Assembly (NCBI GenBank): GCA_019058445.1
Contig: JAHPZA010000010.1
Location: forward strand, 636,035-700,034
Reading direction: 5' to 3'
From: Promethearchaeota archaeon
GTDB lineage: Archaea > Asgardarchaeota > Lokiarchaeia > Sigyniarchaeales > SOKP01
DNA length: 64,000 nucleotides
The notes below the pieces were generated by a model. The model searched no databases. It saw only the letters and a program-made list of their open reading frames with translations, and was not told the origin of the DNA. Below, piece by piece: positions 19,555-43,106 of the stretch (within the stretch, counting starts at the first letter, position 1; each line of letters opens with the position of its first letter). Position numbers and translations under genes: made by a program.

Positions 19555-19656
19555 TATTTCTCTTTTTCTCCTATTTCTTTTCAATAATTTATGAAATTTA
19601 TTATTCAAAAGTGTTTTGACATAATAATAAATATAAAAACTTTTTCTTATTAATAG

Positions 19657-24469: not shown

Positions 24470-24847
24470 CTAATTTGAAATATTTAAAATATTCTTTACT
24501 ATTTCTCTAAATTCAGCAACTTTAATTGGTTTTGATATATAATCATTAAAACCCGCTGCTAAAATTCTTTCTTTATCTCCCTTCATTGCAAATGAAGTAA
24601 CAGCAATGATCGGAATTTCTTTAAATTTATTAATTTTTCGAAGTTCTGTACAGATATCAATACCACTAATTTCTGGTAATTGAATATCTAAGATTACTAG
24701 ATCGGGTTTTCCAGATTTAATTAATTCTAAGCCAGTATCACCTCGAGTTTCAGAAAAAATTTCTACTTCTGGGATTAATTTCAAAATGGCTAAAAAGAGT
24801 TTCATATTTTTCTCATTATCTTCGATAACATATACTTTTTTTTTCAT
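24470..24847 (-). CDS. single-domain response regulator (DivK/CheY-like)
   Basis: IEDNE, LDIQLP, AVTSFAM.GD, YISKP. Confidence 0.93.
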   Translation of the reverse strand: MKKKVYVIEDNEKNMKLFLAILKLIPEVEIFSETRGDTGLELIKSGKPDLVILDIQLPEISGIDICTELRKINKFKEIPIIAVTSFAMKGDKERILAAGFNDYISKPIKVAEFREIVKNILNISN

Positions 24848-25122: not shown

Positions 25123-26646
25123 TTGATGAGCAGAAAAGTAATTCTTATTGGACCACCTGAAGGAGGTAAAACAACCTTGAGAAAGATCTTTTTTGAAGGA
25201 GAGAACTCAACAAGAATTTTAGAATATGGTTTAGAACCTACTCGAGGACATGAAACTATATTATTAGATTTAAGGAAAAAGATAGGTCTATTCGATTTAG
25301 GTGGTCAAGAAAATCAGCGATGGTTTGAAACTGAAGAAATATCAATATTTTATGAAGCGAAAATTATTATTGTTGTATTTGATATAAGTTGGTCATTAAA
25401 TTATATCGTAGATTTCATTAATAAGATTTTAAGAATTCGTGAAGAAATAACTTCTTTATCAACCATTATTATTTTATTACACAAGATCGATTTAGTCGAT
25501 CAGGAAATTATAAGAAGTATGAGTAAAACTATTTATCACACCATCGAAAAAAATAAACTAGTAAAAGTATATTTTACGAGCGTTAAAAGAGAGTATATTG
25601 CTCAAACTTTTTCATATTTTGTTGAAATTATAAAAGCTTGCATCATTGACGAGATTGAACTAGAAGATTCAAATTTTTATTTATTAGATGAAGTATTAAA
25701 AGTCGTTTATCTTACATATAAAAATGAGTTTATCTCTAAAACAGATTTTATTACAAAATTAAATCGCTCAGAAAGAATAATAGATAGAATTATAAACCAT
25801 TTAATAAAGAAGGAACATTTACAATTCTCGGGGATATATGAAAAAGATAAACTTTTTTTCTTAACAGCAATAGGAAAAAAGTATTTTACCGATATCTTAG
25901 AAAAATTCACTCTTGAAAGATATTTAGAAAGATCGAAGATTAAACCATTTCATATAATAATCCCCGAAACAAAAGCCCCCTTTATTTTTGGAGTGTTTTT
26001 AATAAATAGTAAGGGAAAAGTTACGGTAATCTCAGAAACTTATGAAAATGATTTATACAATATCTTAAAGGAGAATTTTCAACGGGATAATTTAGAAGCT
26101 TATTCCTATGATAACCTTATTCAAAACTTTAAAGCTGCCTTAGAATTATTTATTAAAGAAAGTGAGATTCAAGATCTTTCAGGGATAAGGCTAATAGGGG
26201 GAACTCTCTATTTCTTTGAATCTCATGGAATCACATTAAGTATAATCGGTCATCCACATGTTGATTTTAAGAAGTATGAAAACACAATTCTCAAGAGCTT
26301 TGAAAAAACTTACATGGATAACAAACTTGAATTTGATATTCTCAAAACAAGCTCAGCAATTTATAATACTCAATTAACTCGGATCATGAAAGATTGGTTG
26401 ATACAAATTAATAATTTTTACATATCTATGTTGGAAAATTTAGATACAATTGATATTTCGTCAGCTAGAAATCTTTATATGGAATTAGAAGATCTGTCTA
26501 CTAAGATTGATGTGAATAATGTTGAAGTTCAAGAAAGAATAAAAAAATTGAAAATAGGGTTAATGAATAACATACTAGAAGAAAATTTCAATAAATTCAA
26601 AGATATTGCTAATGAAATACTCAAAATTAGCTTAGAGTATAAATAA
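25123..26646 (+). CDS. Rag/Gtr-like GTPase - wHTH - roadblock/longin-like domain
   Basis: GPPEGGKTT, PTRG, DLGGQE, HKID; LTAIGK wing; PFIFGVFLINSKGK. Confidence 0.8.
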   Translation: MMSRKVILIGPPEGGKTTLRKIFFEGENSTRILEYGLEPTRGHETILLDLRKKIGLFDLGGQENQRWFETEEISIFYEAKIIIVVFDISWSLNYIVDFINKILRIREEITSLSTIIILLHKIDLVDQEIIRSMSKTIYHTIEKNKLVKVYFTSVKREYIAQTFSYFVEIIKACIIDEIELEDSNFYLLDEVLKVVYLTYKNEFISKTDFITKLNRSERIIDRIINHLIKKEHLQFSGIYEKDKLFFLTAIGKKYFTDILEKFTLERYLERSKIKPFHIIIPETKAPFIFGVFLINSKGKVTVISETYENDLYNILKENFQRDNLEAYSYDNLIQNFKAALELFIKESEIQDLSGIRLIGGTLYFFESHGITLSIIGHPHVDFKKYENTILKSFEKTYMDNKLEFDILKTSSAIYNTQLTRIMKDWLIQINNFYISMLENLDTIDISSARNLYMELEDLSTKIDVNNVEVQERIKKLKIGLMNNILEENFNKFKDIANEILKISLEYK

Positions 26647-26776
26647 ATTGAAATTATATGGCTATAAATTTTCGAATTTGAAAGTTATTAAATTAGATAT
26701 ATTAATAAATACATTCTTTTTTGTATAATGTGCATAAAATGGATATCTATATTTTATTGCTAAAAGGCAAATTAAA

Positions 26777-28081
26777 ATGGTAATCGGTTTAACATTATAT
26801 AAATGGGATCAGAGGGTAGGCGCCGTATTAGAAGTAAAATATCCGGAATCTTTTGAAATACATGATTCCTTGATGAATAAAATCTACACGACTCATTATT
26901 ATTCTCAAGATTATGAAAAGGAGGAATTAATAGAAATAAATTATGAAGATCAGGTAATTTTTAGCTATTGCGATAAAACCAGAGTTCCTGAAGTAGGTTA
27001 TGAGATATTAATTCTTATTATACATGAAAAGGATAGAATTAATTCATACAATTTAAAAAAAAAACTGTTAGATTTCTCAAGAAATGTTATCAAAGAACCT
27101 AAGGAAAATAGGGCTTCAATTTTCTTGGAGAATGTAAAAACATTTTTCAAGAAACCCTCGGCAAAGAAACTATTACTTCTTGGAAGAGCAGGCACAGGAA
27201 AAACCACGATAAAAAAAATAATATTTGAAGGAATTAGTCCGAAAGATTTGTTATACAATCCTCTAGCACCGACTCGTGGAATAACTCCTTCAATGTATTC
27301 ATGGTTGGATATAAGTTTAGGTCTATTTGATTCTTCCGGTCAAGAGTTACCATTTTTATTGCGCGATGAAGATGAGCAAAAAATTGCTTTTGAAAATACA
27401 GAAGCTATAATATACTTATTTGACTTCCAAAATTGGATGGTAAATCCCCAGGATTTAATAGAAGAAGTCCGCAAAATAAAACAAATTTTCATAAATTATA
27501 ACACTACTGCAAAAATTTTTTTGTTCCTTCATAAAGTCGATTTAATGAAAGAAGATACAAAAGCACGAGATCTTACTGAAATTAAGAGTATAATTCAAAA
27601 AAAGCTTGAGATGCCTCTGTTTACAACAAGTATCTATCCGGATTTAATTTATAGTCTCTATAATGCTTTCTGTGATATTTTGAGTGGTTTTTCAAAAGAC
27701 ACTACGATCATAAGAAATATTTTAGATGATAACATCACTGACTTATCGAAAATGATGTGTTTTATTACAAATCAAAATAATAGTATTGTTGTACAAACGA
27801 TGACTCCAGATTTTAATACAAATTATATTAATCATTCTCATAAACTTATTGCGCAATTAAATCAAAGTTTTGAAGATATGTCCGAAAATCAAATCAATCA
27901 TGTAATTATATCAAGTACTAATGATTTAAATTTGATTATGATGAATTTAGCTTTAAAAAAATTCAACCTAAAAAATTTAATATGTATTTCAGAATCGCTT
28001 CGTGCTAATAAGTTGATTTTATTAGGAGGATATATCAGAACAGCATTAAACCGGTATCTTTATTATAATAAAAAAGACTAA
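26777..28081 (+). CDS. longin/uDENN-like domain - Rag-like GTPase - roadblock-like C-terminal domain
   Basis: N-terminal LYKWDQRVGAVLEVKYPE; GRAGTGKTT, PTRG, DSSGQE, HKVD, TSI. Confidence 0.8.
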   Translation: MVIGLTLYKWDQRVGAVLEVKYPESFEIHDSLMNKIYTTHYYSQDYEKEELIEINYEDQVIFSYCDKTRVPEVGYEILILIIHEKDRINSYNLKKKLLDFSRNVIKEPKENRASIFLENVKTFFKKPSAKKLLLLGRAGTGKTTIKKIIFEGISPKDLLYNPLAPTRGITPSMYSWLDISLGLFDSSGQELPFLLRDEDEQKIAFENTEAIIYLFDFQNWMVNPQDLIEEVRKIKQIFINYNTTAKIFLFLHKVDLMKEDTKARDLTEIKSIIQKKLEMPLFTTSIYPDLIYSLYNAFCDILSGFSKDTTIIRNILDDNITDLSKMMCFITNQNNSIVVQTMTPDFNTNYINHSHKLIAQLNQSFEDMSENQINHVIISSTNDLNLIMMNLALKKFNLKNLICISESLRANKLILLGGYIRTALNRYLYYNKKD

Positions 28082-28093
28082 ATCAATGATTAA

Positions 28094-29626
28094 ATGAGTA
28101 AGAAAATCGTTATAGTAGGACCGCCAGGAGCTGGTAAAACTACTCTTCGCAAAATTTTTTTTGAAGGTGAAAACTCATCTCAACTCTTAGAATATGCACT
28201 TGAACCGACTCACGGGCAAGAATCTCTCATCTTAAAATTGAGGCCTGAAGTAGGAATTTTTGATTTAGCAGGTCAAGAAAATAAGAGATGGTTTGAAACA
28301 GGTGAGAGCTCTATTTTTTATAGTGCAAAAATAATCCTTGTGGTAATAGATATAATCTCTTCAATTGAAACAATACTCGATTTTATAAGAAAGGTTATTG
28401 AGATTAGGAATTCTCTTACTCCAAATTCAATGATTTATGTCCTATTACATAAAATTGACTTAATTACAGAGAATCAACTTAAGAAAATAAGGATAAAAAT
28501 AAATAGATCTCTATTAGAAGTGAATTTAATAAAAGTTTTATTCTCTAGCGTTAAAAAAGAATATTTTTCCACTACTTTATCATTTTTTCTTGAAATCTTA
28601 ATGATTTGTTTAAATGAAGAAATCTCATTCGAAAATTTTGATTTTTATTTATTAAATGAAACAATTAGACTACTTAAGTTAATAGATAACGAATTGATCA
28701 GTTCCAAAACAGATTTGCATGAAAGATTAAATATAACTGAAGAAGATCTTAATCGAATAATAAATCATTTAGTTGAAACTGGACAAATTCAATTTTCTGA
28801 TATAAAAACCGAGAGAATACTAAGCCTTACAGAAAAAGGTAAGAATAACTTTAATAAAATTGTAAACAATTTTTCTATGAATAATATTTTGAGTTTTAAA
28901 AAAGAAGCTACTGTTATTAATATCCCAAGTAAAGAAAATATTCCCCCATTTTTGGGTTATTTTATTGCTAACGAAGATGGTCTAGCATTACAAAAAGTAG
29001 AATTGTATGAAGGAATTCTTTTAAACTATCTAAAAATCAAATACGGAGAAAAAGAAATAATAGAAAATGAAAAGTTTGATCTTGATTTAATCCCGATGTT
29101 TGTTAGTGCCTTAGAGAAATTTTCAAATGAAATTAATATTAAAAACTTATCTGGTTTCACTTTAATGGGAACTAATTTAAAGATGCAAATCTTGGGATAT
29201 GATCAATATACGGTAACTCTCTTTTCTAATCCAAATGTTAACATAAAAAATATCAAATATAAAATTGATAATTTTTTCATTAATTTTTTTGAAATCCATA
29301 AAAATGAGTTTGAGAAAGCTGTTAAAACGGGCTCCTTTAGTAATATTCAGTATTTAGCGGAAGAAGGAGCAAATTGGTTAAATCGACTGAATATTTTATA
29401 TAAAAACATAATTATAAGTACCGATTTCTATGATTTAGAAAGTGCAAAAAACATTTATGATGATCTAGACAATTTCCAAAGAGATGTAAATATTGAATAT
29501 TCAATTATTCTTGAAAAAATTAAAAAATTAAAAATTAATTTGATGAATGCAATTTTAATAGAAGACTTCGAGGAGATTAAAAAATTGGCCATGACTGCTC
29601 ACCATCTAAAATCCAAATTTTACTAA
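28094..29626 (+). CDS. Rag/Gtr-like GTPase - wHTH - roadblock/longin-like domain
   Basis: GPPGAGKTT, PTHG, DLAGQE, HKID; LTEKGK; PPFLGYFIANEDG...LIPMFVSALEKFS. Confidence 0.8.
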   Translation: MSKKIVIVGPPGAGKTTLRKIFFEGENSSQLLEYALEPTHGQESLILKLRPEVGIFDLAGQENKRWFETGESSIFYSAKIILVVIDIISSIETILDFIRKVIEIRNSLTPNSMIYVLLHKIDLITENQLKKIRIKINRSLLEVNLIKVLFSSVKKEYFSTTLSFFLEILMICLNEEISFENFDFYLLNETIRLLKLIDNELISSKTDLHERLNITEEDLNRIINHLVETGQIQFSDIKTERILSLTEKGKNNFNKIVNNFSMNNILSFKKEATVINIPSKENIPPFLGYFIANEDGLALQKVELYEGILLNYLKIKYGEKEIIENEKFDLDLIPMFVSALEKFSNEINIKNLSGFTLMGTNLKMQILGYDQYTVTLFSNPNVNIKNIKYKIDNFFINFFEIHKNEFEKAVKTGSFSNIQYLAEEGANWLNRLNILYKNIIISTDFYDLESAKNIYDDLDNFQRDVNIEYSIILEKIKKLKINLMNAILIEDFEEIKKLAMTAHHLKSKFY

Positions 29627-29701
29627 TATTGATTTTTAGTATATAAAACTCAGACTTAATTCTTAAAGAAATAATCTATATTTATAAACATGAGTAATAA
29701 A

Positions 29702-32449
29702 TCAAATCAAATTCAGAAATTCATCTACTGAAAATTCTTCAATTTTTATATTCTTTGGAATAGTAAATGTAAAAGTTGTCCCGACACCTAATTTACTTGT
29801 AAAAAAAATATTTCCACCATGAAGATTCACTAATCTCTTGGTTAGCGATAACCCTAAACCAGTACCAGGCAATGAATTTGTGTAAGGATTATTAACTCTT
29901 TTGAAGTCTTTGAAGATTATATCAAAATATTTTTCTGGAATACCAATACCTGTATCTTTAACCTTAAATATCCAATTCTCTTTATCTTCTTCGACAATAA
30001 TTGTAATTTTTCCTTCTAATGTGAACTTTATTGCATTATCAAGTAAATTATAAAGAATTTCCTTAAACCTCAAAGGATCAGCTGTAATTTCTTTTTTACT
30101 TTTTAATCCTTTCAACTTAATCTTAATATTCTTCTTTGAATATTCTGGTTTGAAAGTTGATAAAACTTGTTCTATTATTGAATTTAAAGAAAAAATCTTA
30201 GTGTTTAATGTCGTCTCTCCTGCCTCGATTTTTGAAATATCTAAAATGTCTTTTACCATGTCAAATTGATGCTGAGCTGAAGATTTGATATCATTTACAA
30301 ATTGAAGTTGTTCTTGGTTTAAAGGGCCATATACTTCTTCTAAGAGCAAGTCAGTAAATCCTATAATTGCGTTTAAGGGAGTTCTTAGTTCATGAGACAT
30401 AGTCGCTAAAAATTCATTTTTTATTTGTGAAGCTCTAAGTATTTCATCTAAATATTTTTTTTGCTGGTCTAAAGCTCGTTTAAGCTCTTTAGTTCTGATT
30501 ACTACTTCTTCCTCTAATTGTTCCTTAAATCTTTCTTCTAAGAGTTCAGCTCTTTTTCGTTGAGTTATATCTTTAGCTATCCCAAAAAATCCTATTTTTG
30601 TTCCTTCTGAATCATACATTAAGGAGATTGAAATTTCGATAAATTTTTTTTTTTTATTCTTAGTTTTAATTTTATATTCAAAATTCTTGACTGATTTTTC
30701 GGTTTTATAAACTTCATTAAACTGAGTGAAAACCTTCTCTTTAGTAGAATAATCTAAATATTCTCTATAATTCATATTCCTTAATTCTTCTTTGGGGTAT
30801 TCAAAAATATTACATAATGACTCGTTAAAGAATATGAAATCTCCTCTTAAATCAACTTCATAATATCCTTCTTTAATATTATTCAAAATTTTTCGATATT
30901 TCTCTTCAGATTCTTTTAATTGTACCTCAGCATTTTTTTGGTCAGTTATATCAATAATATTAATTAAATCCGCATAATGTCCTTGAAATTGGATTGATTT
31001 AGAATAATTATCAATCCATTTCACTATTCCTTTTTTCGTTAAAATTTTAGACTCATAATGAATTATAGCATCTGAAGTACCTTGTTGCTTTATTGCAGCT
31101 TGTTTCGACACAAAATCTCGAAATTCTGGATGGATAATTTTAATCCATTCATCTGAGCCCCAACCCATTATCTCCTGAACGCTATATCCGCATATAGAGG
31201 CAAAATAATGATTTATATATATAAAGTTATTATTTTGTAGTATTGCTATTCCCATCAGAGATTGTTCAGTTATAATTCTAAATTTTTCTTCAGAATCTCT
31301 AAGATCATTCTCTGCTTTCTTTTGCTCATAAATCCTGCCTAAAAATTCAGCAATAGCATTAATAAGGTCTAATTCTTCTCTTAAAAAAGGTCTTTGTTCA
31401 GATTCTTGTATATCTTTTAGATAATATACTTCCACAGTACCAATTTTTTCTCCCTTTACTTTGATTTCAGCGATATGTTTCCATTCTGTTTCCACAAAAT
31501 TGTCGTTTTTAAATTCCCCTCCTTTAATTATGATTTTACAACATATTTCATTGGGAAATTGGAAAGCAGGCAGAATTAAATCGAGAGTTCTTTGAAATAT
31601 TTCTTCTATTGGAAGATCATTATTTTCAATTAGTTTTGATAATCCATATAAACAAGTAAGTTCTTTTACACTTTCTTTTAATTTACTTTCCAGCTCAAGT
31701 TGTTTAGTAATATCTTTTATCGTCCCTTCCACTTCCAATGGATTTCCCTTTAAATCGCGTATTAGATGCGCGTTTATTTCAACGGTTATTGTTTTTCTAT
31801 TTGGTGTTTTAATTTTAGCGATAAAATTTTTTATGTATCCATTTCGCTCTAATTCTTCATAATATTGTTCTTGTGTTTTAGAACCAACTAAAAACTCAGA
31901 TGCTTTTGCTCCCACTAAACTTACTGATGGATCCAGACCTAAAATACTATTTAATTGTTGATTATGAATGAGCAGCTTTCCCTTGAACTCACCTTTATAA
32001 AATCCCACGTCTAAATTTTTAATTATATTTTTGAGGTTTTCTTCGGATTTTTGTAATAATTCTTCCAAATTCTTCTTTTTAGTAATATCCTCTGCCATTT
32101 CAAAACGAACCTTCCGTCCGTCATCCCAAATTATTGCTTGATCAATAATATGAAACCATTTACCGACTTTTTCGTTATAAAAATCAAAAATAAATGGAGA
32201 TTTTGGTCTTTTACTGAATAAAAGTCTATTGGTACAAAAAGAACAAGGTTCATTAAATTCATGAAATACTTCATAGCATTTTTTACCTATAATATCTCCT
32301 GGAACATATTCGTTCGTTTTATTATTCACATAAAGAATCTCATAAGAATTCGGATCTGAGATATAGACTAGTTGTTCAAAATTATCAAAAATCGCTTTAA
32401 ATTTCTGATCTCCTTGAATTTCAAAATTTTTTGTTTTATTCTCTTTCAA
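29702..32449 (-). CDS. multi-PAS/GAF sensor histidine kinase
   Basis: 4 PAS domains (first has GKKCY...PCSFC), a GAF-like segment, MSHELRTPLN, HATPase. Confidence 0.95.
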   Translation of the reverse strand: MKENKTKNFEIQGDQKFKAIFDNFEQLVYISDPNSYEILYVNNKTNEYVPGDIIGKKCYEVFHEFNEPCSFCTNRLLFSKRPKSPFIFDFYNEKVGKWFHIIDQAIIWDDGRKVRFEMAEDITKKKNLEELLQKSEENLKNIIKNLDVGFYKGEFKGKLLIHNQQLNSILGLDPSVSLVGAKASEFLVGSKTQEQYYEELERNGYIKNFIAKIKTPNRKTITVEINAHLIRDLKGNPLEVEGTIKDITKQLELESKLKESVKELTCLYGLSKLIENNDLPIEEIFQRTLDLILPAFQFPNEICCKIIIKGGEFKNDNFVETEWKHIAEIKVKGEKIGTVEVYYLKDIQESEQRPFLREELDLINAIAEFLGRIYEQKKAENDLRDSEEKFRIITEQSLMGIAILQNNNFIYINHYFASICGYSVQEIMGWGSDEWIKIIHPEFRDFVSKQAAIKQQGTSDAIIHYESKILTKKGIVKWIDNYSKSIQFQGHYADLINIIDITDQKNAEVQLKESEEKYRKILNNIKEGYYEVDLRGDFIFFNESLCNIFEYPKEELRNMNYREYLDYSTKEKVFTQFNEVYKTEKSVKNFEYKIKTKNKKKKFIEISISLMYDSEGTKIGFFGIAKDITQRKRAELLEERFKEQLEEEVVIRTKELKRALDQQKKYLDEILRASQIKNEFLATMSHELRTPLNAIIGFTDLLLEEVYGPLNQEQLQFVNDIKSSAQHQFDMVKDILDISKIEAGETTLNTKIFSLNSIIEQVLSTFKPEYSKKNIKIKLKGLKSKKEITADPLRFKEILYNLLDNAIKFTLEGKITIIVEEDKENWIFKVKDTGIGIPEKYFDIIFKDFKRVNNPYTNSLPGTGLGLSLTKRLVNLHGGNIFFTSKLGVGTTFTFTIPKNIKIEEFSVDEFLNLI

Positions 32450-32537
32450 GATTAAATACGCTATAGTATAATTCTATTTGATTATCTATCTTATTATGCT
32501 AAATTAAATTATTCTGGAATTGTAATGAAAAATGTAA

Positions 32538-35066
32538 TTAAATATTATCTTTAGTTTTTTCAATTTTGGGTATTGTGAAGTGGAATGTAGTTCCTACACC
32601 AAATTTACTTTTATACCATATTTCTCCTCCATGTAAATTAATGATTCGTTTAGTTACTGCTAATCCTAATCCTGAACCAGCTACGTTTTTCAATTTGTCA
32701 TTCTCTATTCGACCAAATTCTCTAAAAACAACATCATTATCCTCATCTTCAATTCCAACACCCGTATCTTCTACTTGAAATTCCCAATGATCCCTCCTTT
32801 CAAAAGCTTTTAAATTAATATAACCTTCATTAGTAAATTTTATAGAATTATCGATGAGATTATATAAAACTTGTTTAAATCTTAAAGGATCCGCGCTGAT
32901 AACAGTATTTTGGTTAATTCCTTCAACATTAAATTCTAGATTTTTTCGAATATATAGAGGTTCTGTTATAGATTTAATTTCTTGGATAATGGGCCATAGT
33001 TCAAAATCAGTTATATTTAATTCAAATTTACCTGCATCGATTCTCGACAAATCCAATATACTGTTTATTATATTTAAAAGGTGTTCTCCCGCTTGATATA
33101 TATCCTTTAAAAAGGTTTTTTGCTGTTTATTAGTATTTCCATATCCATCTTCTAAGAGTAATGAAGAAAATCCTAAGATTGCATTTAAAGGAGTTCTTAA
33201 TTCATGAGAAACTGTAGCTAGAAACATAGACTTAAATTCTAATGATGAAATTAACTCATCAAGTAACAATTCTCTACGTCTTTCGTAATTTTTACGTTCA
33301 GAAATATTAGAAAAAAAAGATTGTATAATAAGATTTTCTGCAATTTTAATGATTGTGGAAGAAATTTCAACATCAATTAACTTCCCTGTTTTTGTTTTAA
33401 TTGATGCCTCAAATGAATTTTTTGTGGTTAAATCATAGATATCTTCGTTAAAATGTTTATGTGCTATTTCAAGGTATTTTGGATCAAAGATATTAAGAAT
33501 TTTATAATTTAATAGTTCATCATCATATTCTAATAAGTCCTTTGCAGCTTCATTTGCTCTGAGTATCTTTCCACTATTATCTATTAAAAAGATTGCTAAA
33601 GGAGCATGCTCAATTAATGCATTCATCTCATGAAGTGTTTGCTCAAGTCTTCGTACTATTCTTTCTGATTCTTTGAGCTCAGTTATATCTAAGGCAGTGA
33701 TTTGAATTGCATATATGGTTCCTGACAAATCTTTAAGTGGTTGTTCATCAACTAAAAAGCATTTATTTCCTGTAAAATATTCATAAGTTTCTTCATATGA
33801 GTTCCCTATTCCTGTTTCAAAGATCTTAAGATAAGAATTAAAGCGCTTTTCTGCAACTTGGGTTGGAAATACATCAAATAAAGATTTTCCAATGAAGCCA
33901 TCTGGTACTCCACCTAAATCTTTAGCTGCTTTTTTATTAACAACTAAAAATATACCATTTCTATCTATACTCATAATACTGGATTCAGAATGCTCAATTA
34001 AATTTTTATATTTCATTTCGGATTCTTTTAAGGCCAATTCAGCTATTTTTCGTTCTGTAATATCCATAGCATAAACATTTACATAATGTACCTCGGGAAC
34101 TGGTGTAATCGTTAGCGAATAAAATTGTGTATTAAATTGGAGTTCCATTTGTTTATTTGTCCGAGTCATTATCGCTTCATTAATAGGAGTTCTTAGGAGT
34201 TTAGGAACAGCACTTCCTTTTTCTATATTGAACCATCTCTTTGCTGCAGGATTAGCATAGATAATAATACCATCAGTTGCTCTCAAAACAGGATTAGGAT
34301 CTTCAGAAGGAAATTTAGCGATGCTTTTTATTTTTTCTTCTGCTTCTTTGCGAATTGAGATATCTCTGATAGTAACTAAATTTGCTTCAGAATTTTCCCA
34401 TAAAATTCTTGCTGAGTTCATCTCAGCATGAATAATCCGTCCATCTTTCTTAGGAATTTTAATCTCAGTTTTATTTTCAAGGCTAATTGGATAACCAAAA
34501 GATTGATCTATAAAGTTATTTCGTTCTCTATCAAATAATTTTTCTGCTGCATTATTTACAAATTGCACAATCCCTTGATCATTGATTATTGCAATCCCGT
34601 CCGCATTTCCATCTATAATATTTCTTAGTTGCTCTTGACTCTTCTGAAGGGTCGTTGCTAATAATTCTATGGTTTGCTTCATTTTTTGCCTATCTATTGC
34701 ATGAATGATAGCTCTTGCTAAAATATTTCCCGTTATCGTCCCTTTTATTAAGTATTCCTGAGCACCTACCTGAACCGCCTTTTTAGCAATATTTTCATCT
34801 TTAACTCCCGTTAAAACAACAATAGGTAAATTTTTAACTTTATCACGAGTTTTAATTATAGTATCGATTCCCCTACAATCAGGAAGAATTAAATCTAAAA
34901 GAATAACATCCGACTTATACTTCTCGATTTTTTTAAAACCAGTAGTAAGATTTTTAGCTATGATTAACTTATAATAAAAATTGCTATTATCTTTAAGAAG
35001 TTCTTCAATTAAACGAATATCTCCCGGATTATCTTCAATTAATAAAATATTTATTGTTTCGTTCAT
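32538..35066 (-). CDS. hybrid histidine kinase (REC - multi-PAS - HisKA - HATPase)
   Basis: [34 protein letters not shown]. Confidence 0.95.
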   Translation of the reverse strand: [842 protein letters not shown]

Positions 35067-35210
35067 AGGAGCAATAGGTATCGATTTTATAAACTACTAT
35101 TTATTAGAAATAAACATTAGTAAGACTTTGGGACCATTATAGTGTTTTAAATTTTATTACAAAAACGCATTTAACATTTTTATAAATTACTTTTATTTAT
35201 GCTTTTAGTT

Positions 35211-35930
35211 TTACAGAGTAGATTGAGAATTCATTTTTAATGCATTATGAATAGTTACAATGAGTTTTTCACAGAGGAATGGTTTTTCAATAAAATCTAT
35301 TACACATAAAGAGAATATTTCCTCCTTTATACTATTATATGCTGTCGTAAAGATTATCTTTGAATCTTGATCTATATTTAAAATCATTTTTGCTGTTTTA
35401 ATACTATTTTGCATTGGCATTCGATGTTCTATTAAAAATGATAGATTCATTGTGATTAACATAGTTTATTTCAAAAAAGCTCTTAATTTTCTCATCTTTA
35501 TGTTTAAAATAGGATAATCCAATAAAATCGATTTTGAAAAGGAAATACTATTATTTTACATTGGTTCATCCTAAGATCCTTTTGAAGAATGAATACTTTT
35601 ATAAAATATTTATAAATGTACTCTAACGAATTCCTAACATCAAATATGCAAATTGCTATGGAAATATTGTTAAATAATTTTATTTCTGAAGAAAACCATA
35701 TATCGTTTTCTTCCCCGACTAAACAAAATATCTCAAAATGATTATTGCAATATAAATATAAATTCGAATTTTTCTCTTTTGTAGGCTCATGTGAAGAATT
35801 TATTAATTTGAGAGGATTTGCTATCTCAAAAATTACCTTCTTGATTGTTGTCTTTCCTGCTAAAGGTGGTTTTGTTAATACAATTTTAACACTTTTTCTT
35901 TTATTAAGGTTTAAGAGACTAATCTTTTTG
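35211..35930 (-). pseudogene. decayed Rag-like GTPase joined to a receiver-domain remnant
   Basis: KIVLTKPPLAGKTTIKKVIFE...EPTK...EENDIWF...FKID with a frameshift, then HRMP...KIIFTTA...DFIEKPF. Confidence 0.7.
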
Positions 35931-35978
35931 TTTATTTTTCTATTAATTATTTATTTTTAAAATTATGCTAAATTGATC

Positions 35979-36620
35979 TTACTTTACGATTGAGTCCTTT
36001 AACTTATTTTCAACTGCTATTATAATATCATTACACGAATCTAGCATCATTTCTATATAAGATACGACAATATCATCAGATAATTTTCCGTTTATCCTTT
36101 TTTCCTCTAAGATTAACTCGCAAAAACCTTGAATCGTATTTACTCCACTCCGAATTTGAAGATTAACTGATTCTAAAGGCAATAAATCAGCTTTATTTAT
36201 ATAAATTTCATTTATTTGCTCAATAAATTTTTTAAAATAATCCTCATCATCATTCAGAATTTTTTTGGTTCCGATTTTATGAAACATCATTTCTATCCTT
36301 TTAAAATGGAGAATCGGAATTAAAGGATTTTCAACGTGTCTTAATAATATAATAGCATAAAGTTGCTTTCCACCTCTTGCTGTGCTATCCTTTACTTCAA
36401 TTTTACATACTTGAGAATAAAATTGATTAAAATCTAAGATCACAAATTTGTTTTTTGTATTTAACGCGTCTCTAAGAAGATTTCGAACGAATTCTTCATC
36501 TTTGATGGGTACCGATGAGTAGAGTGCTCTTGGGCCTAAAATTTGATCGTATTTCCCAATAATAGTAATAAAAGGAAATATATTTAGGTGTTCTTTGAAA
36601 TTTTTATATATCTCAATCAA
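35979..36620 (-). CDS. longin/uDENN-like domain fused to a His-less HisKA (DHp)-like hairpin
   Basis: IIGKYDQILGPRALY...RGGKQLYAIILL; VNLQIRSGVNTIQGFCELILE aligns with [21 protein letters not shown]. Confidence 0.65.
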   Translation of the reverse strand: MIEIYKNFKEHLNIFPFITIIGKYDQILGPRALYSSVPIKDEEFVRNLLRDALNTKNKFVILDFNQFYSQVCKIEVKDSTARGGKQLYAIILLRHVENPLIPILHFKRIEMMFHKIGTKKILNDDEDYFKKFIEQINEIYINKADLLPLESVNLQIRSGVNTIQGFCELILEEKRINGKLSDDIVVSYIEMMLDSCNDIIIAVENKLKDSIVK

Positions 36621-37007
36621 TTGGGATACCCTGTTATTATAATAGTTTAATTTTTTAATTACTATCTCTTACATAAATGTTGAGGGATTTATTATTAATG
36701 ATAATAGGTTAATTGTTTATAAATCTTTATTATAGTGAATCAAAAATGTTAAGAATAGCCTTTAATTGAGGTCTTCTCAATGAAAAGGGGACATTTATTA
36801 ACAATAGATAAAAAAGTATTTCATTCCAAAATCTAATTTAATTGATTAATCAATTTTTAAATGCTAAATTATAAGAAAGAATAAGTCATCATTTTTTCTT
36901 TTTAACAAAACTTTTAAAGTCTGAGTTTTATATTCTATTCGGTTTTAATAATATTTCGAAATAGAATTAGTTACATTTTTTAAGTAAACCAAAAGTGAAA
37001 TCATTAA

Positions 37008-38507
37008 TTGAGTAAAAAAATCGTTTTTATTGGTCCTCCCGAAGCTGGAAAAACTACTCTCAGAAAAATTTTTTTTGAAGGAGAAAATCGCAAAGAGCTC
37101 TTAGAACATGCATTAGAGCCTACCCATGGGCAAGAAACAATTATAGTTAAATTAAAGCAGGACATCGGAGTTTTCGATTTAGCGGGGCAAGAAAACCAAA
37201 GATGGTTTGAAACTGAAGATAAATCCATCTTTGATAATACCGAAATACTTATTGTAGTAATTGATATTACATCACCGATGCAAGAAATATTAGAGTTTAT
37301 CACAAAAATTATAAATATTAGAGATGAATTAACGCCCTCCTCATTTATTTTTTTATTATTACACAAAAAAGATTTACTTACTCGTGAAAAAATTTCTGAC
37401 ATCAAATTAAAACTTATACGAGAATTAAGAAGAATTTCCCGATTGAAAATTGCCTTTACTAGCATTAAGAAGAAGTATTTTCTTGAAACTCTTTCTTTAT
37501 TTATGGAAATACTAAAACTATGTACTTCAATGATTAGCGGTAAAGAAAGAAAAAATTTAGATTTAGTAGAGGACTTAATAAATATTCTTTATTTAATCAA
37601 TAAAGATGTTGTTATTTCTAAATCTGATTTATCTAATATGTTTAAATTAGATGAAAAAGCCTTAGATAATTTAATAATAATCTTAGAAAAGAAGAATTAT
37701 ATTAAAATTACAAAAACACATGATTATCCATTATACAGTTTAACTGACCAGGGTAAGCTGTATTTTGAAGAAATTTTAAAAGAATTTACTGAAGAGGGAT
37801 TTAAATTAGAAACTTGCTTATTTGAAACAAAAATGGAAGAGAAAAGTGCGCCACCTTTTCTAGGATTTATGATTGCTGATAAGGATGGAAAAACTTTACT
37901 AACTTCCGAGGTCTATGAAGGAGTTTTTAATGATTTTTTTCAAACTAAGAATGATGAGATGCAACCAGATCATGACCTGATTCCTATGTTTATAAATGCT
38001 TTAGAAAAATTTTCAACAGAGATTAACATTAAAGATTTATCAGGATTTAAGTTAAAAGGAACAAACATTAAAATGCAAACCTTTCGGTATGACTTGATTA
38101 CTGTCACCCTATTTATGAACGCAGATACTAATATAAAATCGCCTAAAGATGAAATAAATACATGGTTTAATAATCTTTTTACTACACATGAAAAAAAATT
38201 TGAATATAGTATTTTAACTGGAGATATAAGTCAGATAGTTCAAATTCATAATGATGGAACAAATTGGTTAAAAAAATTAAATGAAGAATATAAAGAAAAG
38301 GCGATAAATCTACAGATTTTTGATTTCAGACAAGCTACCGATTTATATGAGAAATTGGAACATATTTCAAGTCGAGTTAAAGTTTCTCATTCTATTCTTA
38401 TTCAAAAAATTAAAAATTTAAAAAACAATCTAATGAAAGCCATATATGCTGAAGATTTTCAAGAAATACGCGAGATAGCTAAAACTTCCAGTGATTTAAA
38501 AATATAA
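37008..38507 (+). CDS. Rag/Gtr-like GTPase - wHTH - roadblock/longin-like domain
   Basis: GPPEAGKTT, PTHG, DLAGQE, HKKD; LTDQGK; PPFLGFMIADKDGK. Confidence 0.8.
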   Translation: MSKKIVFIGPPEAGKTTLRKIFFEGENRKELLEHALEPTHGQETIIVKLKQDIGVFDLAGQENQRWFETEDKSIFDNTEILIVVIDITSPMQEILEFITKIINIRDELTPSSFIFLLLHKKDLLTREKISDIKLKLIRELRRISRLKIAFTSIKKKYFLETLSLFMEILKLCTSMISGKERKNLDLVEDLINILYLINKDVVISKSDLSNMFKLDEKALDNLIIILEKKNYIKITKTHDYPLYSLTDQGKLYFEEILKEFTEEGFKLETCLFETKMEEKSAPPFLGFMIADKDGKTLLTSEVYEGVFNDFFQTKNDEMQPDHDLIPMFINALEKFSTEINIKDLSGFKLKGTNIKMQTFRYDLITVTLFMNADTNIKSPKDEINTWFNNLFTTHEKKFEYSILTGDISQIVQIHNDGTNWLKKLNEEYKEKAINLQIFDFRQATDLYEKLEHISSRVKVSHSILIQKIKNLKNNLMKAIYAEDFQEIREIAKTSSDLKI

Positions 38508-38684
38508 TTAATGAAAATAGCCATTTCTTTCTAATCATATTTAAAAAGAAGGTTAATTTGCATAAAAATTTGAAATGAACTTCCAAAAAAATTCGATATA
38601 AAAAAGTTTATAATAATGCAGTTTTATCTGATAAGTAGTTTATACATTTTTTATATAATTAATGTACCTATAGAGTGAAAAAAA

Positions 38685-39932
38685 GTGTTAAAAGAAGTAA
38701 AATTGGAGAAAATCTCAAAATTGTTAGATCCTGATGTAGTAAATATTAAAACAATTAATCAAGTTGGTAAATTACCAATCTCTTCTTTAAAATTCCTATC
38801 TCTCCAAGATGAAGTTATAATTAAAGACTTATTGGGAGTTTCAAAGATTGCAGATTGTATTAAATTGGATAGGCAAAACCCTTTTAAAAAAATAAGTAGA
38901 TCGAAGCAAAAAAAGGCTAAACTTTCAAAGATTATCAAAGAAGACCTTGAGTTTGAAGAAAAAATCAAACAAGCCATAACTATGAGTTTTATTATACAAA
39001 AAATAATGAGAGAATCAGCTACAAAGAAGAAGAAAGATCAAAAAATTATTGTTGTTGGACTAAATAACGCTGGTAAAACAGCTATTTTATCTCAATTTGG
39101 AGGTAAGTTAGGGATTAAAGATCTTGCTTTACTAAAACCAACCAGGGGAGTACATCGACAAGAAATTAGCACAAAAGATTTAAATCTTCATATATGGGAT
39201 TTTGGAGGGCAAGAGGATCACAGGAAAGAATATCTTGACACGCCTGAAGAATATTTTTTTGGGATAGACTTGATCATATATGTTATTGATATTCAAGACA
39301 CTGAGAGATATGATGAGAGTATTAAGTATTTTAAAAATATTATTGAAAATGTAATAAAATTAGAAGAAACTGCCCATGTTTCAATATTTATCCATAAGGT
39401 GGACCCAGATATTAGAGATGACAATGAAGTTTTACTTAATGTTGAATTGGTAAAAGATTCAATTAGAACCATTTTTCAAAATGTACAGCTCAATTATGAT
39501 ATATACTTAACATCGATTTTCTCCATGATTTCAAGAGAACCTCAGTTCTCTAAATTTATTAAAGATGTTATGGCCGATACTGCTAACCTAACAGATCCTA
39601 CAGCCCTTAAAGTGAGTGAGTTGGGGAATATAATAGAGAAGGCGCTTAATGCTGTAATTCAGCTAAGTTCAGGTATGGTGGCCCTCGAGAAGAGGATAGA
39701 AAGCCTCGAACACCCGAGACGAGGAAGAACAACCAAAAAAGCAACTCAAGAGCAACTACCTACACCAGAAGTCTCAAAATCAGTAGTACCTCTACCACCA
39801 CCTCCCCCGCCACCAAAAGGAACTTCAGCTCCAGTTCCTCCGAAAGAAGGCCCTGGAGTAAGATCAGCATTGATGTCCGAGTTAAAGGATATTTTTGTTA
39901 AAAAAGGGATATATCGTGAATATGAGATGTAA
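38685..39932 (+). CDS. Arf/Rag-like GTPase with coiled coil, polyproline and WH2-like tail
   Basis: GLNNAGKT, PTRG, WDFGGQE, HKVD; PLPPPPPPPKG...VRSALMSELK. Confidence 0.8.
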   Translation: MLKEVKLEKISKLLDPDVVNIKTINQVGKLPISSLKFLSLQDEVIIKDLLGVSKIADCIKLDRQNPFKKISRSKQKKAKLSKIIKEDLEFEEKIKQAITMSFIIQKIMRESATKKKKDQKIIVVGLNNAGKTAILSQFGGKLGIKDLALLKPTRGVHRQEISTKDLNLHIWDFGGQEDHRKEYLDTPEEYFFGIDLIIYVIDIQDTERYDESIKYFKNIIENVIKLEETAHVSIFIHKVDPDIRDDNEVLLNVELVKDSIRTIFQNVQLNYDIYLTSIFSMISREPQFSKFIKDVMADTANLTDPTALKVSELGNIIEKALNAVIQLSSGMVALEKRIESLEHPRRGRTTKKATQEQLPTPEVSKSVVPLPPPPPPPKGTSAPVPPKEGPGVRSALMSELKDIFVKKGIYREYEM

Positions 39933-39991
39933 GATCTTAAATAAAAGAATTTTACCTTTTTTAAATCTTGATTAATATACATAAATTAAAG

Positions 39992-40888
39992 TCAAACATT
40001 ACTCGAGACCTTGTTCAAGTTAGAAAAAATATAAATAATTTGAAGTCCATCATTAAATTTATTTTCAAAAATCTTTTTTTCTTCACTTTCTAAACCGAGT
40101 TTAAACCATTTAGCCCTATTAGTCAGATAAAATGAAAATGGTTCTAATATAGGATGTTCAATAAATCCCATATGTTCTAATCTTTTTAGATGATAACGGA
40201 CTTCCTTAGAGTTAAGTTTAAAATAATTTTCAATGTCATCATGATAATAATTTATTGAGGGTGTAACCTTTAGAATAATTGATAATTCGACTTTTAAATT
40301 GACAAAGTCTCTTTGACTAGGTTTAATCGAATTTTCATTGAATATCTCATTAAAAATATTAAAAAACACAGTATATGATTCAAAAAAAAAACCTTTTGTA
40401 ATAGATGTTTCATAGATCGGGATTAATCGTTTATTTAAATTTTGAAGTTGTAATTGTTTATATAAAAAATTAATAACAGTATGGGAATAAGTAGGAGTTA
40501 CTAGGTCTACTTTATGTAGTAAAACAACGAGATTACATGCATAAAGCTGTATTTGCTCCATTAAATTTAGGACTTTTTTAAAAAAATGCAACATTGATTC
40601 TAATGGACTAGTAATATCAAACACGCAAATAATAAGATTACTTCCTTTAAAAATGTCTGATTCTTTTAAAAACCATATCTCGTTTTCTTGACCAGCTAAA
40701 TCGAATATTCCAAGATCCCAAGTGAAGAGAGAAAATCTATTTGAATTTACTCCTTTTGTTGGTTCTATTGACTTTTGTAAAAGCTTAATAGGATTCGCCA
40801 TTTCAAAAAATACCTTTTCTATGGTGGTTTTCCCAGAATTTGGTGGTCCTATTAATGTAATTTTCCTCCTAATCGATTTTACTTTCAA
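39992..40888 (-). CDS. Rag-like GTPase with C-terminal wHTH
   Basis: GPPNSGKTT, PTKG, DLAGQE, HKVD, ETSI; EVRYHLKRLEHMGFIE. Confidence 0.8.
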   Translation of the reverse strand: MKVKSIRRKITLIGPPNSGKTTIEKVFFEMANPIKLLQKSIEPTKGVNSNRFSLFTWDLGIFDLAGQENEIWFLKESDIFKGSNLIICVFDITSPLESMLHFFKKVLNLMEQIQLYACNLVVLLHKVDLVTPTYSHTVINFLYKQLQLQNLNKRLIPIYETSITKGFFFESYTVFFNIFNEIFNENSIKPSQRDFVNLKVELSIILKVTPSINYYHDDIENYFKLNSKEVRYHLKRLEHMGFIEHPILEPFSFYLTNRAKWFKLGLESEEKKIFENKFNDGLQIIYIFSNLNKVSSNV

Positions 40889-41150: not shown

Positions 41151-43106
41151 TCATAGTTTTTTAGGTATAGAAAAAGTAAAAGTTGTACCAACTCCTAGAA
41201 CACTAAAAAATGTTATCTCACCTCCATGTAAATTAACTAATCTTTTAGTCAACGATAACCCTAATCCAGTACCAGGAACAGAACGAACATATGAGGAGTC
41301 AACCCTTTTAAATTCTTTAAAAATTAAGTCAAAATCTTTACGGGCAATTCCTATCCCATCGTCTCTTACTTTAATTAACCAATGATCATATTTTTCTTGA
41401 ACCACAATAGAAATAATTCCCTTCGCTGAAAATTTAATTGCATTACTTACAAGATTTAAAAGTATTTCTTTGAACCTTATAGGATCAGCAAATATTTCCT
41501 TCTCACTATCTAAACCTTTAATTTTAAATTTAAGACCTTTCTTTTTGTAAAGAGCCCTTACTGATGATTTGATCTGATTTACCATATTATTTAATGAAAA
41601 CTTTTGAATATTTAAGACTATTTGGCCAGCTTCAATTTTAGAGATATCTAAAATATGCTTTATCATATCAAATTGATATTCTGCTGATGACTTAATATCA
41701 TTAAGATATTCTAATTGCTCATCATTTAGTTCACCATATACCCCTTCTAATAGTAAATCTGTAAATCCGATAATGGCATTTAACGGAGTTCTTAATTCAT
41801 GAGACATCGTAGACATGAACTCTGTTTTAAATTGAGAAGATTTTAAGATTTGATCAAGGTATAACTTTTGTTGCTCGAGAGCATCATTTAATTCTTTTGT
41901 TCTATTTTGTACTTCTTTTTCTAATTCTTCCTTGAACTGTTGTTCCAAAAGTTCACCTTTTTTTTTTTCGGTTATATCTTGGAAGATAAATTGTAACAAC
42001 ATACGTTCTCCAATTTTAAATGAAGACGCTTGAAGATTAACCCAAATTGATCTAGAATCATTATTTTCGATTTGTATTTCAATTGGTTCGGGATATTCAC
42101 CTTTGAAGGAAGCTTGAAAAATCTGTTTAAAATAAGGTTTAATTTCATTGGGAAAAATTTCTGTTAAATCGTATATATTTTTGCCGATGAGATAATCCTT
42201 ATTAAAGCCTAATAATTTATTTGATGTAGTATTAGTATCAACAACTATTCCCTCAAAATCTATTAGTAGTATAGCGCTTGGGGAATTTTCAAATAAATTC
42301 TTGTATTTCTCTTCAGCTAATTTTCGTTCGGTAATATTTCGAAGTATAACTAACCATTTTAATTCACCTTTCTTGTTGTAATAGGTATTACCTCGACAAT
42401 CGAACCAAATCCAATTTTGATCTTTATGTTTAAATCGTAATTCGATTTTCTGCCCATCAATTTTAAATCTTTTATTAAAGGTATCAAGTGCAGTCTCAAT
42501 GTCATCAGGATGAATATAATTTAAAACTGAATTATCTATAACATCTTTTACACCATACCCTAAAAGTTTAAAAAAGATGTGTTCATTGATATATTCAAAT
42601 TCATATTCATCATTTAAGACATAAATCAAATCATTAACATTTTCTGTAATTCTACGGTAAGTCTCTTCACTTTCTAATAACTCTTGTTCAGCTTTTTTTT
42701 GATTAGTAATTTCTTTTAGAAACACCACAATTTTAAGATTCTTTTCTTTATCTTTAAATGACTTACCTCTTATTTCAAACCAAGGATATCCTCCATCTTT
42801 GTGTTTTAATCTTACTTGTAAAGGATTGGTATTACTTATAATTTCACATTTTGTAATATTTACATCATTATTAACATCATCAGGATGAACAAGAGATAAT
42901 AATGGATTTCCTATGATATCGTCTTTTGAATATCTTAAATTTTTCTCAAAGGCATATTCATTAATGAATTCAAATTCATAATCTTCATTTAAAATTGAAA
43001 TCAAATCATTGGTATTTTCAAATATAAATTTATATTTTTCATATAAATTAACAAAATCAGAAGCTTTCTCTTCAATTTTGTCTTTATCTTTAAAAGCCTC
43101 GTTCAA
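41151..43106 (-). CDS. PAS domain sensor histidine kinase
   Basis: 3 PAS domains, MSHELRTPLN, NLVSNAIKF, GTGLGL. Confidence 0.95.
   Translation of the reverse strand: MNEAFKDKDKIEEKASDFVNLYEKYKFIFENTNDLISILNEDYEFEFINEYAFEKNLRYSKDDIIGNPLLSLVHPDDVNNDVNITKCEIISNTNPLQVRLKHKDGGYPWFEIRGKSFKDKEKNLKIVVFLKEITNQKKAEQELLESEETYRRITENVNDLIYVLNDEYEFEYINEHIFFKLLGYGVKDVIDNSVLNYIHPDDIETALDTFNKRFKIDGQKIELRFKHKDQNWIWFDCRGNTYYNKKGELKWLVILRNITERKLAEEKYKNLFENSPSAILLIDFEGIVVDTNTTSNKLLGFNKDYLIGKNIYDLTEIFPNEIKPYFKQIFQASFKGEYPEPIEIQIENNDSRSIWVNLQASSFKIGERMLLQFIFQDITEKKKGELLEQQFKEELEKEVQNRTKELNDALEQQKLYLDQILKSSQFKTEFMSTMSHELRTPLNAIIGFTDLLLEGVYGELNDEQLEYLNDIKSSAEYQFDMIKHILDISKIEAGQIVLNIQKFSLNNMVNQIKSSVRALYKKKGLKFKIKGLDSEKEIFADPIRFKEILLNLVSNAIKFSAKGIISIVVQEKYDHWLIKVRDDGIGIARKDFDLIFKEFKRVDSSYVRSVPGTGLGLSLTKRLVNLHGGEITFFSVLGVGTTFTFSIPKKL

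Follow-up and report, generated by a model that had tools for sequence, protein, structure and literature searches.

The locus considered here raises the question of whether, in an archaeon, bacterial-type His-Asp signalling is wired to GTPase switches of the Rag/Gtr type, and through which protein the two might meet. Asgard genomes are rich in Rag-, Arf- and Rab-like GTPases, as well as in longin and roadblock proteins. The window (the whole stretch analysed, namely the final 64 kb of contig C10 in a 4.6-Mb genome of 10 contigs and ~27% G+C) contains an island in which Rag-like GTPase genes are interleaved with genes for histidine kinases, and its proteins have homologues labelled Lokiarchaeia or Promethearchaeota. 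A preliminary description, made from the sequence alone and confined to 25123-40888, read this island as a hybrid module joining His-Asp sensing to Rag-like switches. Genomic context and the domain fusion in a small protein overlooked by that description, ORF213, lend support to this proposal. The island, whose true extent of ~18.7-45.8 kb is wider than the segment first described, probably represents (at roughly 60%) one conserved Lokiarchaeia/Promethearchaeia signalling module, in which a two-component phosphorelay is wired to Rag/Gtr-like GTPase switches.

The genes on which this argument draws are listed below, with lengths in amino acids (aa):

20601-22256, plus strand: HK1, soluble PAS-HisKA-HATPase_c histidine kinase, 551 aa (Pfam; no transmembrane-like segment; core 48-51% identical to HK2 and HK4)
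24470-24847, minus strand: stand-alone CheY-like receiver, 125 aa (Pfam Response_reg, E 4e-24)
25123-26646, plus strand: G1, class-A GTPase, 507 aa (Pfam; full-length identity to G3 40%)
26777-28081, plus strand: G2, GTPase with an N-terminal domain of ~125 aa, a Rag G domain and a C-terminal domain, 434 aa (Gtr1_RagA, E 1.7e-29)
28094-29626, plus strand: G3, class-A GTPase, 510 aa, 12 bp downstream of G2 (structural model, Pfam)
29702-32449, minus strand: HK2, multi-PAS histidine kinase, 915 aa (Pfam; 53% identical to 14542-17469 of cluster locus L037)
32538-35066, minus strand: HK3, hybrid REC-PAS-HisKA-HATPase_c kinase with an N-terminal receiver, 842 aa (Pfam)
35979-36620, minus strand: ORF213, predicted longin (~15-141) and HisKA/DHp hairpin without the histidine (~150-211), 213 aa (structural model, Foldseek, VIA-align, Pfam, profiles and synteny)
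37008-38507, plus strand: G4, class-A GTPase, 499 aa (Pfam; 46% identical to G3)
38685-39932, plus strand: G5, GTPase with an N-terminal extension, a Rag/Arf-like G domain, a polyproline stretch and a terminal amphipathic helix, 415 aa (Gtr1_RagA 1e-26, Arf 2e-23)
39992-40888, minus strand: G6, Rag GTPase with a winged helix-turn-helix (wHTH), 298 aa (Gtr1_RagA 2.8e-16; ArsR-type HTH match)
41151-43106, minus strand: HK4, PAS histidine kinase, 651 aa (Pfam; 66% identical to L037 12370-14505)
43784-45841, plus strand: HK5, PAS histidine kinase, 685 aa, bounding the syntenic block on the right (Pfam)

Rag-like GTPases and two-component proteins of the island

Six intact GTPase genes had been recognized by their PT(R/H/K)G, DxxGQE and HKxD motifs, and all are present in the translations, where the first motif reads PTRG, PTHG or PTKG depending on the GTPase and the G4 motif HKID, HKVD or HKKD in all six. 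The P-loop and switch motifs are likewise retained. Each exceeds the Pfam Gtr1_RagA gathering score (E 2.9e-14 to 1.7e-29). The class-A layout shared by G1, G3 and G4 (~500 aa) comprises a Rag-like G domain, a wHTH, an alpha/beta platform and a helical bundle. In the AlphaFold2 (AF2) model of G3, which has a predicted local distance difference test score (pLDDT) of 81, the G domain occupies residues 1-175 and a MarR-like winged helix ~184-272, followed by a platform of order beta-beta-alpha-beta-beta-beta-alpha at 286-412 and a four-helix C-terminus. Superposition of the G domain alone (VIA-align) gives Z 21-22 for G3 on Gtr1, RagA, RagC and RagD, with 164-168 residues fitted to ~1.9-2.1 A, against ~18 for Rab, Arl and ROC. 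The class-A and G2 profiles both place RagA and Gtr1 at the top (E 4e-18 and 7e-22, respectively), with Arl and Rab weaker by orders of magnitude. Full-length Gtr1 and RagA also rank first for G3 in Foldseek (alignment over 400 columns, with the Loki RagA-like structure 8yl2 among the matches), with rigid superposition on Gtr1/RagA covering chiefly the G domain. Both the profile and the structure searches agree with the family assignment first made: the G domains are closer to RagA-D and Gtr1/2 than to other small GTPases, and belong to the Rag/Gtr family.

For the C-terminal roadblock domain, named at the outset as typical of Rag/Gtr GTPases, the indications differ between the proteins. It has sequence support in G2, for which a profile search against RagA and Gtr1 (E 7e-22 to 1e-16) yields an alignment extending into their C-terminal domain, to residues 244-273; it is only topologically plausible in the ~500-aa class-A GTPases, and G6 carries a wHTH only. 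The winged-helix matches in class A and G6 are of the MarR, ArsR and Sso10a types. Comparison of G2 with ORF213 by hhalign found no similarity, including for the G2 N-terminal domain, and an ESM Atlas feature search with this domain gave only weak leads (0.79) among small Loki proteins. A derivation of class A as a fusion of a G6-type protein with ORF213 was ruled out, with an hhalign E of 0.21 for ORF213 against class A and no homology. Stand-alone homologues of the class-A platform (~190-265 aa) are encoded at C10:543361-543939 and C7:36031-36828, and free copies occur in many related genomes. The G5-type proteins have a further architecture, and most of their orthologues elsewhere carry NKAD, not HKxD. 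Their C-terminus, kept in 10 orthologues, consists of a polyproline stretch (~PPPPPPPK), a short spacer and a helix of the form R-x2-[ILVM][ILM][ST]EL[KR]-x-[MLI]F-x-[KR]. This layout resembles the WASP-type arrangement of polyproline and WH2; a Pfam WH2 search of the 10 orthologous tails at E up to 10 gave no match, the motif being short and weak matches being dropped by HMMER filters.

The five PAS kinases and one stand-alone receiver reported earlier were confirmed by Pfam, although only two of the kinases lie inside 25123-40888 and the receiver just outside it. All five kinases combine PAS, HisKA and HATPase_c domains, none has a transmembrane-like segment, and the H-box histidine (H31 in the aligned cores) is invariant among them. 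In the receiver, D10, D54, T84 and K106 are invariant across 16 orthologues with a mean identity of 74%. Judged from their sequences, the kinases and the receiver retain the catalytic residues and display the features of a two-component system. HK2 and HK4 are orthologues of the ~975-aa and ~711-aa kinases, respectively, that accompany the cluster in other genomes. Beside the cluster in several genera lie proteins of ~286-291 aa (L036 3524-4384 and 6644-7519; L039; L038 2391-3236), which possess a helical N-terminus, a HisKA domain with its histidine and a receiver, without an ATPase domain. These HisKA-receiver proteins could be phosphorelay intermediates. A reading of those in the loci of genus g4 as longin fusions was rejected on the basis of this same architecture.

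ORF213 as a predicted longin-DHp protein

ORF213 is annotated as hypothetical in every source and is without a precomputed Pfam domain. Identity across ~300 metagenomic proteins is 60-88%, a higher conservation than that of the GTPases; when 1.8 billion representatives were searched exhaustively with its profile, only 33 relatives came back. Its AF2 model (pLDDT 88) has longin topology, with strands at 18-25, 29-35, 59-63, 67-77 and 85-95 and helices between and after them, followed by a two-helix hairpin at 150-211. NPRL2 ranks top in structural comparison (Foldseek, VIA-align; Z 13.4, 2.9 A over 135 residues), followed by the Loki longin 8yqg, Npr2 or Npr3 of the SEA complex (Z ~12) and FLCN (Z 11, 15-17% identity), with generic longins at 8-10. 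A fold search of the ESM Atlas recovered NPR2, Folliculin and SMCR8 clusters together with a Heimdall Folliculin-like cluster, and the Pfam Folliculin model matches all 11 orthologues from the fetched loci, weakly and below the cut-off in every case. Neither FLCN nor NPRL2 was reached when PDB sequences were searched with the whole of ORF213 or with the longin half alone, and the link to these proteins is therefore structural, supplemented by the weak Pfam matches. In the models, the ORF213 longin is closest to the NPRL2/FLCN-type catalytic longins of the GTPase-activating protein (GAP) complexes that act on Rag and Arf.

Two short motifs bear on this resemblance. Across 48 ORF213 sequences G29 is invariant and P30 at least 90% conserved, the pair standing at the start of strand 2, where a GP motif is specific to GAP-type longins (PMC12290439). 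The spacing D25-x3-G29-P30 equals that of D34 and G38-P39 in C9orf72 (as quoted in PMC12290439). In the same sequences R82-G83 is at least 90% conserved and falls in the beta4-beta5 loop between strands 67-77 and 85-95, the loop that carries the arginine finger in SMCR8 (R147) and FLCN (R164; bioRxiv 10.1101/2020.04.16.045708).

The C-terminal hairpin resembles the DHp domain of histidine kinases. A profile of this region (~165-221) matched multi-HisKA-repeat proteins at E 2.6e-14 in 1.8 billion proteins, the match itself scoring 1.6e-37 with Pfam HisKA, and the best PDB sequence match is a kinase DHp. Modelled residues 148-213 superpose on the DHp of HK853 at Z 8.6 and 2.5 A over 63 residues (VIA-align), and two of the 11 orthologues match Pfam HisKA. 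The ORF213 segment NLQIRSG was aligned by hhalign to SHELRTP of the window kinases, and the PDB search gives the same alignment. The H-box position is L, M, I or V in all 11 orthologues, so that the phospho-acceptor histidine is absent, and the protein ends after the hairpin without an ATPase (CA) domain; for both reasons ORF213 is not a kinase. On the strength of these models, it is an NPRL2/FLCN-type longin fused to a phospho-dead DHp. Two relatives of ~390 aa (P0251 and P0256) are PAS-longin-DHp proteins, that is, a sensor fused to the candidate GAP module; such forms are rare.

Conservation of the cluster and its state in this genome

The co-location of the two gene classes, whose lack of conservation in other genomes would by the preliminary description have counted against a module, recurs in dozens of Lokiarchaeia/Promethearchaeia genomes but is restricted to one order. 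Two independent anchors were used. Around class-A genes, 20-kb neighbourhoods were annotated with custom hidden Markov models (HMMs), with which two contig look-ups with precomputed Pfam domains agree; around ORF213, 48 loci were taken, with one genome per species. Within the order to which the window belongs, 62 of 75 genomes encode the class-A-specific C-terminal half, as against 0 of 225 from the other Asgard families searched, and no homologues of the cluster proteins turned up outside this order. Conservation is limited to a single Asgard order.

The recurrent cluster contains a receiver of 121-125 aa, a G2-type gene followed by a class-A gene, PAS kinases of ~711 and ~975 aa, a G6-type gene, ORF213 and a divergently oriented G5-type gene. 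Kinases and receiver domains both occur near class A in 14 of 20 loci fetched (13 of 18 genomes) and in both contig look-ups. In two loci (L037 and L040), seven to nine cluster genes are co-directional with gaps or overlaps of no more than 167 bp; some genomes carry the cluster as one operon read in a single direction. Within 6 kb of ORF213, a Rag-like gene is present in 44 of the 48 loci, a kinase in 39 and both in 36; where at least 6 kb was available on both sides (18 loci), the corresponding counts are 16, 17 and 15, with both plus a receiver in 12. The next co-directional gene after ORF213 encodes a Rag-like GTPase in 26 loci and a kinase in 16 (median gap ~30 bp), a split that mirrors the two halves of the protein. 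The G5-type gene is divergent from ORF213 in most genomes. In 13 of 22 deduplicated cases the gene just upstream of class A is of the G2 type, mostly at a spacing of -17 to +38 bp, which suggests that this pair is translationally coupled. The cluster is also carried by the cultured Promethearchaeum syntrophicum MK-D1 (locus L093). A search of sequencing runs listed DNA contigs from sediment and soil metagenomes and no RNA data.

In the window, the receiver (minus strand) is followed by G1, G2 and G3, with HK2, HK3, a receiver remnant, a decayed G6-type gene and ORF213 on the other strand; G4, G5 and the intact G6 with HK4 come next, and then HK5. Compared with the cluster of relatives, G1, the receiver remnant, the decayed G6-type gene and G4 are extras. 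The block shared with other loci spans 20.6-45.8 kb of the window, and genes outside it are essentially without counterparts there, the sole exception being a weak match at 46012-48027 (25% identity, one locus). It is thus the block, not the chromosomal region, that is conserved, since the flanking genes differ between genomes.

Within this genome, a 50-kb stretch of contig C10 accounts for nine of the 19 strong PF04670 matches, and five of the 36 HATPase_c matches fall within 24 kb, where ~0.19 would be expected for 4.61 Mb. The clustering of GTPases and kinases in the island exceeds chance. Paralogues are 37-46% identical among G1, G3 and G4 and 45-51% among HK1, HK2 and HK4; they are old, and hence do not reflect fresh tandem duplication. 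In a genome census, the three class-A genes, ORF213 and the G2-type and intact G6-type genes appeared nowhere outside the island, the last two each as a single copy. The module is amplified and partly eroded here, with three class-A copies, extra kinases and three GTPase pseudogenes. These three decayed copies, which had already been noticed, were located as listed below, two of them outside 25123-40888. The remaining features of the island are as follows:

~18689-19665, minus strand: G6-type Rag-wHTH GTPase pseudogene, frameshifted (custom HMMs for the Rag G domain and the G6 C-terminal domain match three successive frames)
22749-23114, minus strand: 121-aa open reading frame (ORF), partner of the Rab-like gene (no Pfam family)
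23141-23680, minus strand: Rab-like small GTPase, 179 aa (Pfam Ras, E 4e-44)
23952-24236, minus strand: fragment of a G2-type Rag-like gene, truncated to 94 aa (59% identity with G2 residues 129-203; covers only positions 1-75 of the Gtr1_RagA model)
35211-35465, minus strand: receiver remnant, C-terminal half (Pfam Response_reg model positions 47-110, E 1e-4)
35504-35950, minus strand: decayed G6-type Rag-like gene, a stop-to-stop frame without a start codon (44% identical to G6; Gtr1_RagA below cut-off)

In the last of these the G3 motif has become CLVGEE, the G4 motif is lost and the gene is truncated. The pair formed by the 121-aa ORF and the Rab-like GTPase also flanks the cluster in loci L040 and L050 (62-66% identity). 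An actin paralogue of 361 aa (17476-18558, minus strand; Pfam Actin, E 6e-96) adjoins the left end of the island and the frameshifted G6-type pseudogene; since the flanks fetched from other loci hold no counterpart of this gene, it is regarded as a local neighbour outside the module. The GTPase-rich region reaches beyond the window through three G5-like Rag GTPase genes in tandem (413-422 aa, each on the minus strand) at C10:626908-631020, ~5-9 kb before the window start and ~30 kb upstream of the island. Further away, a leucine-rich repeat protein of 469 aa (6111-7520, minus strand) adjoins a degenerate Ras/Roc-like GTPase of 268 aa (5216-6022, plus strand), an arrangement that recalls split ROCO-type proteins. 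Five tandem genes of ~2650 aa, all on the minus strand at C9:430337-471657, gave weak local matches to the custom HMMs only.

Coupling of the two systems, alternatives and relatives

Because ORF213 consists of a longin and a His-less HisKA hairpin, one polypeptide joins a GTPase-regulator fold to a two-component fold. In the module proposed here, the cytoplasmic PAS kinases would sense an intracellular cue and phosphorylate the output-less receiver. Either the receiver or the kinase DHp itself would then dock on the DHp-like hairpin of ORF213, and docking would switch a GAP-type activity of the longin toward neighbouring Rag-like GTPases, the adjacent Rag-wHTH protein being the first candidate. 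The G2-type and class-A proteins may work as a Rag-like dimer, with output via the built-in winged helices (to DNA or to partner proteins) and possibly via the polyproline-tailed GTPase. Several observations weigh against such a module. The genomes compared are related by descent, so the counts overstate independence, and in some relatives (L047-L049, family f2) a class-A paralogue occurs without a kinase within 10 kb. R82 was matched to the finger of FLCN/NPRL2 by loop topology and not by residue-by-residue superposition, and hhalign assigns a low probability (12%) to the match of the ORF213 DHp with the kinases of the window. Beyond the island, this genome shows no significant closeness of Rag-like genes to kinases (two of 10 within 5 kb, p ~0.14), and the case for coupling consequently rests on cross-genome comparison.

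This lack of significant proximity elsewhere in the genome would also fit a signalling gene island without direct coupling, in which paralogues accumulate by local duplication and shared regulation while serving separate pathways. Both families are expanded, duplication and decay are evident (three pseudogenes, 37-51% paralogue identity), and Liu et al. (bioRxiv 10.1101/2020.10.19.343400) state that the eukaryotic signature genes of Asgard archaea mostly stand outside conserved neighbourhoods. An uncoupled island is nevertheless improbable, given that genera at ~45% protein identity share the same gene order and orientation despite differing flanks, that overlaps and gaps of 0-40 bp look operon-like, and that a single-copy longin-HisKA fusion sits between the two gene classes. 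The winged helices invite yet another reading, namely that the wHTH GTPases are GTP-gated transcription factors of neighbouring genes and the cluster a regulon with its own regulators, not a relay. The MarR-, ArsR- and Sso10a-type matches in class A and G6 accord with this, as does the label 'predicted transcriptional regulator' that one source gives to a homologue, and transcription-linked MglA group 3 systems were proposed by Wuichet and Sogaard-Andersen (PMC4316618). Winged helices are, however, often protein-protein modules, and a regulon would leave the longin-DHp protein and the output-less receiver unexplained; this reading appears very improbable as a full account, and transcriptional control would equally fit the relay model as its output step.

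Signals might instead run in the opposite direction, as in a conservon, with the Rag-like GTPases and ORF213 upstream and their nucleotide state controlling the kinases, for example through ORF213 heterodimerizing with or capping the kinase DHp; in that case the pathway would end in the receiver as its output. Directly downstream of ORF213 lies a kinase at 16 of the 48 loci, of all its neighbours the kinases persist most, and its hairpin, as a HisKA homologue, could pair with a kinase DHp. In the actinobacterial conservon, moreover, a single complex that lacks a response regulator is made up of histidine kinase, roadblock protein and small GTPase (PMC4316618, PMC13343842). The cluster, in contrast, includes a phosphorylatable stand-alone receiver, which conservons do not have, the GP motif and loop arginine point to a GTPase and not a kinase as the target, and the PAS domains already supply the kinases with inputs of their own. 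Reverse flow is therefore considered unlikely, and the relay from kinases to GTPases is preferred.

Prokaryotic systems of comparable composition differ in their parts. The conservon (CvnA-D) is likewise an operon of a histidine kinase, a roadblock/longin-superfamily regulator and Ras-superfamily GTPases (PMC4316618, PMC13343842, PMC13621833), but it has an MglA-type GTPase, a free MglB roadblock protein (CvnB), a membrane-bound kinase and no receiver, whereas in the Loki cluster the GTPases are of the Rag type, the PAS kinases are soluble, and a receiver and a longin-DHp fusion are present. Pfam gave no match to the roadblock (MglB) or CvnC families among the cluster proteins scanned. With Rag-type GTPases and no such match, the cluster is not an actinobacterial conservon. 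The MglA-MglB-RomR polarity system of Myxococcus xanthus also relays chemosensory or two-component input to a small GTPase, with a receiver-domain protein and a GAP of the roadblock type as intermediaries (PMC4316618, PMC9481161), but its GTPase belongs to another family, it has no DHp-longin fusion and its genes do not form one such cluster. A defence-system reading was dropped when PADLOC gave only trivial P-loop and receiver matches, and an NCBIfam scan found nothing specific.

The eukaryotic Rag/Gtr GTPases with their longin GAP complexes, GATOR1 (NPRL2-NPRL3) and FLCN-FNIP in mTORC1/TORC1 signalling, share more of the cluster's components. The cluster G domains are closest to RagA/Gtr1 and carry the HKxD G4 motif, class A has an alpha/beta platform after the G domain, the tightly coupled gene pair suggests a dimer, and the longin is nearest to NPRL2/FLCN, with a GP motif and a loop arginine. 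The cluster differs in that its GTPases bear winged helices, its 213-aa longin has a HisKA hairpin in place of DENN or NPRL2 C-terminal domains, and its upstream sensors are PAS histidine kinases with a CheY-like receiver. No TOR-pathway families besides Gtr1_RagA and Folliculin were matched among the cluster proteins scanned; TOR, Ragulator and DEPDC5 were not searched for.

Parts of this picture have precedents in the Asgard literature. NPRL2-like longin fusions to two-component domains, resembling ORF213 in joining such a longin to two-component parts, were reported by Liu et al. (bioRxiv 10.1101/2020.10.19.343400, Fig. 5c; Nature 2021), who also proposed that Asgard growth control centres on two-component systems with eukaryote-like regulators; the general hybrid idea is for this reason not new. 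Their conserved DENN operon holds a Rab-like GTPase, not Rag, and as far as the text shows the fusions are described without a conserved Rag-containing neighbourhood, whereas here Rag-like genes stand near ORF213 in 44 of 48 loci. Rag-like GTPases of MK-D1 (Tran et al. 2024, PMC10933270) and LokiRagO (PDB 8yl2) come from the same group of organisms and include longin-GTPase-roadblock and GTPase-roadblock fusions, and one operonic MK-D1 pair is predicted to dimerize like Gtr1-Gtr2. According to Tran et al., the GTPase genes of MK-D1 do not as a rule share operons with roadblock or longin genes, so that genome layout could not match regulators to GTPases (PMC10933270); the present cluster, in contrast, supplies such a match from layout. 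Which GTPases partner the GP-motif FLCN/NPRL2-like Asgard longins is a question posed by a 2025 study (PMC12290439), and a paper on Asgard two-component kinases leaves GTPases unmentioned. In the literature searched, which excluded most subscription journals, neither a description of a cluster of Rag, longin-HisKA, kinase and receiver genes nor a paper on LokiRagO was found.

The cluster offers a concrete, conserved and testable pairing, in which a GP-motif longin stands beside Rag-like GTPases and is fused to a two-component domain. Since it is present in the cultured MK-D1, its proteins can be cloned from a real organism. It adds Rag GTPases to the idea of Liu et al. that eukaryote-like regulators are coupled to bacterial-type two-component systems, and bears on the origin of the Rag-GATOR-FLCN branch of TOR signalling. 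A bolder and decidedly tentative view is that the cluster may be a surviving prokaryote-style Rag-GATOR1/FLCN axis, with a His-Asp phosphorelay in place of amino-acid sensors and TOR. Through the DHp hairpin the phosphorylated receiver would gate the longin GAP, which in turn would determine the nucleotide state of a Rag-like heterodimer, and the GTPases would act on DNA and the cytoskeleton through their winged helices and the polyproline-tailed paralogue. If this is true, Rag GTPases and longin GAPs would have been cognate before eukaryogenesis, and would later have been rewired from two-component control to TOR.

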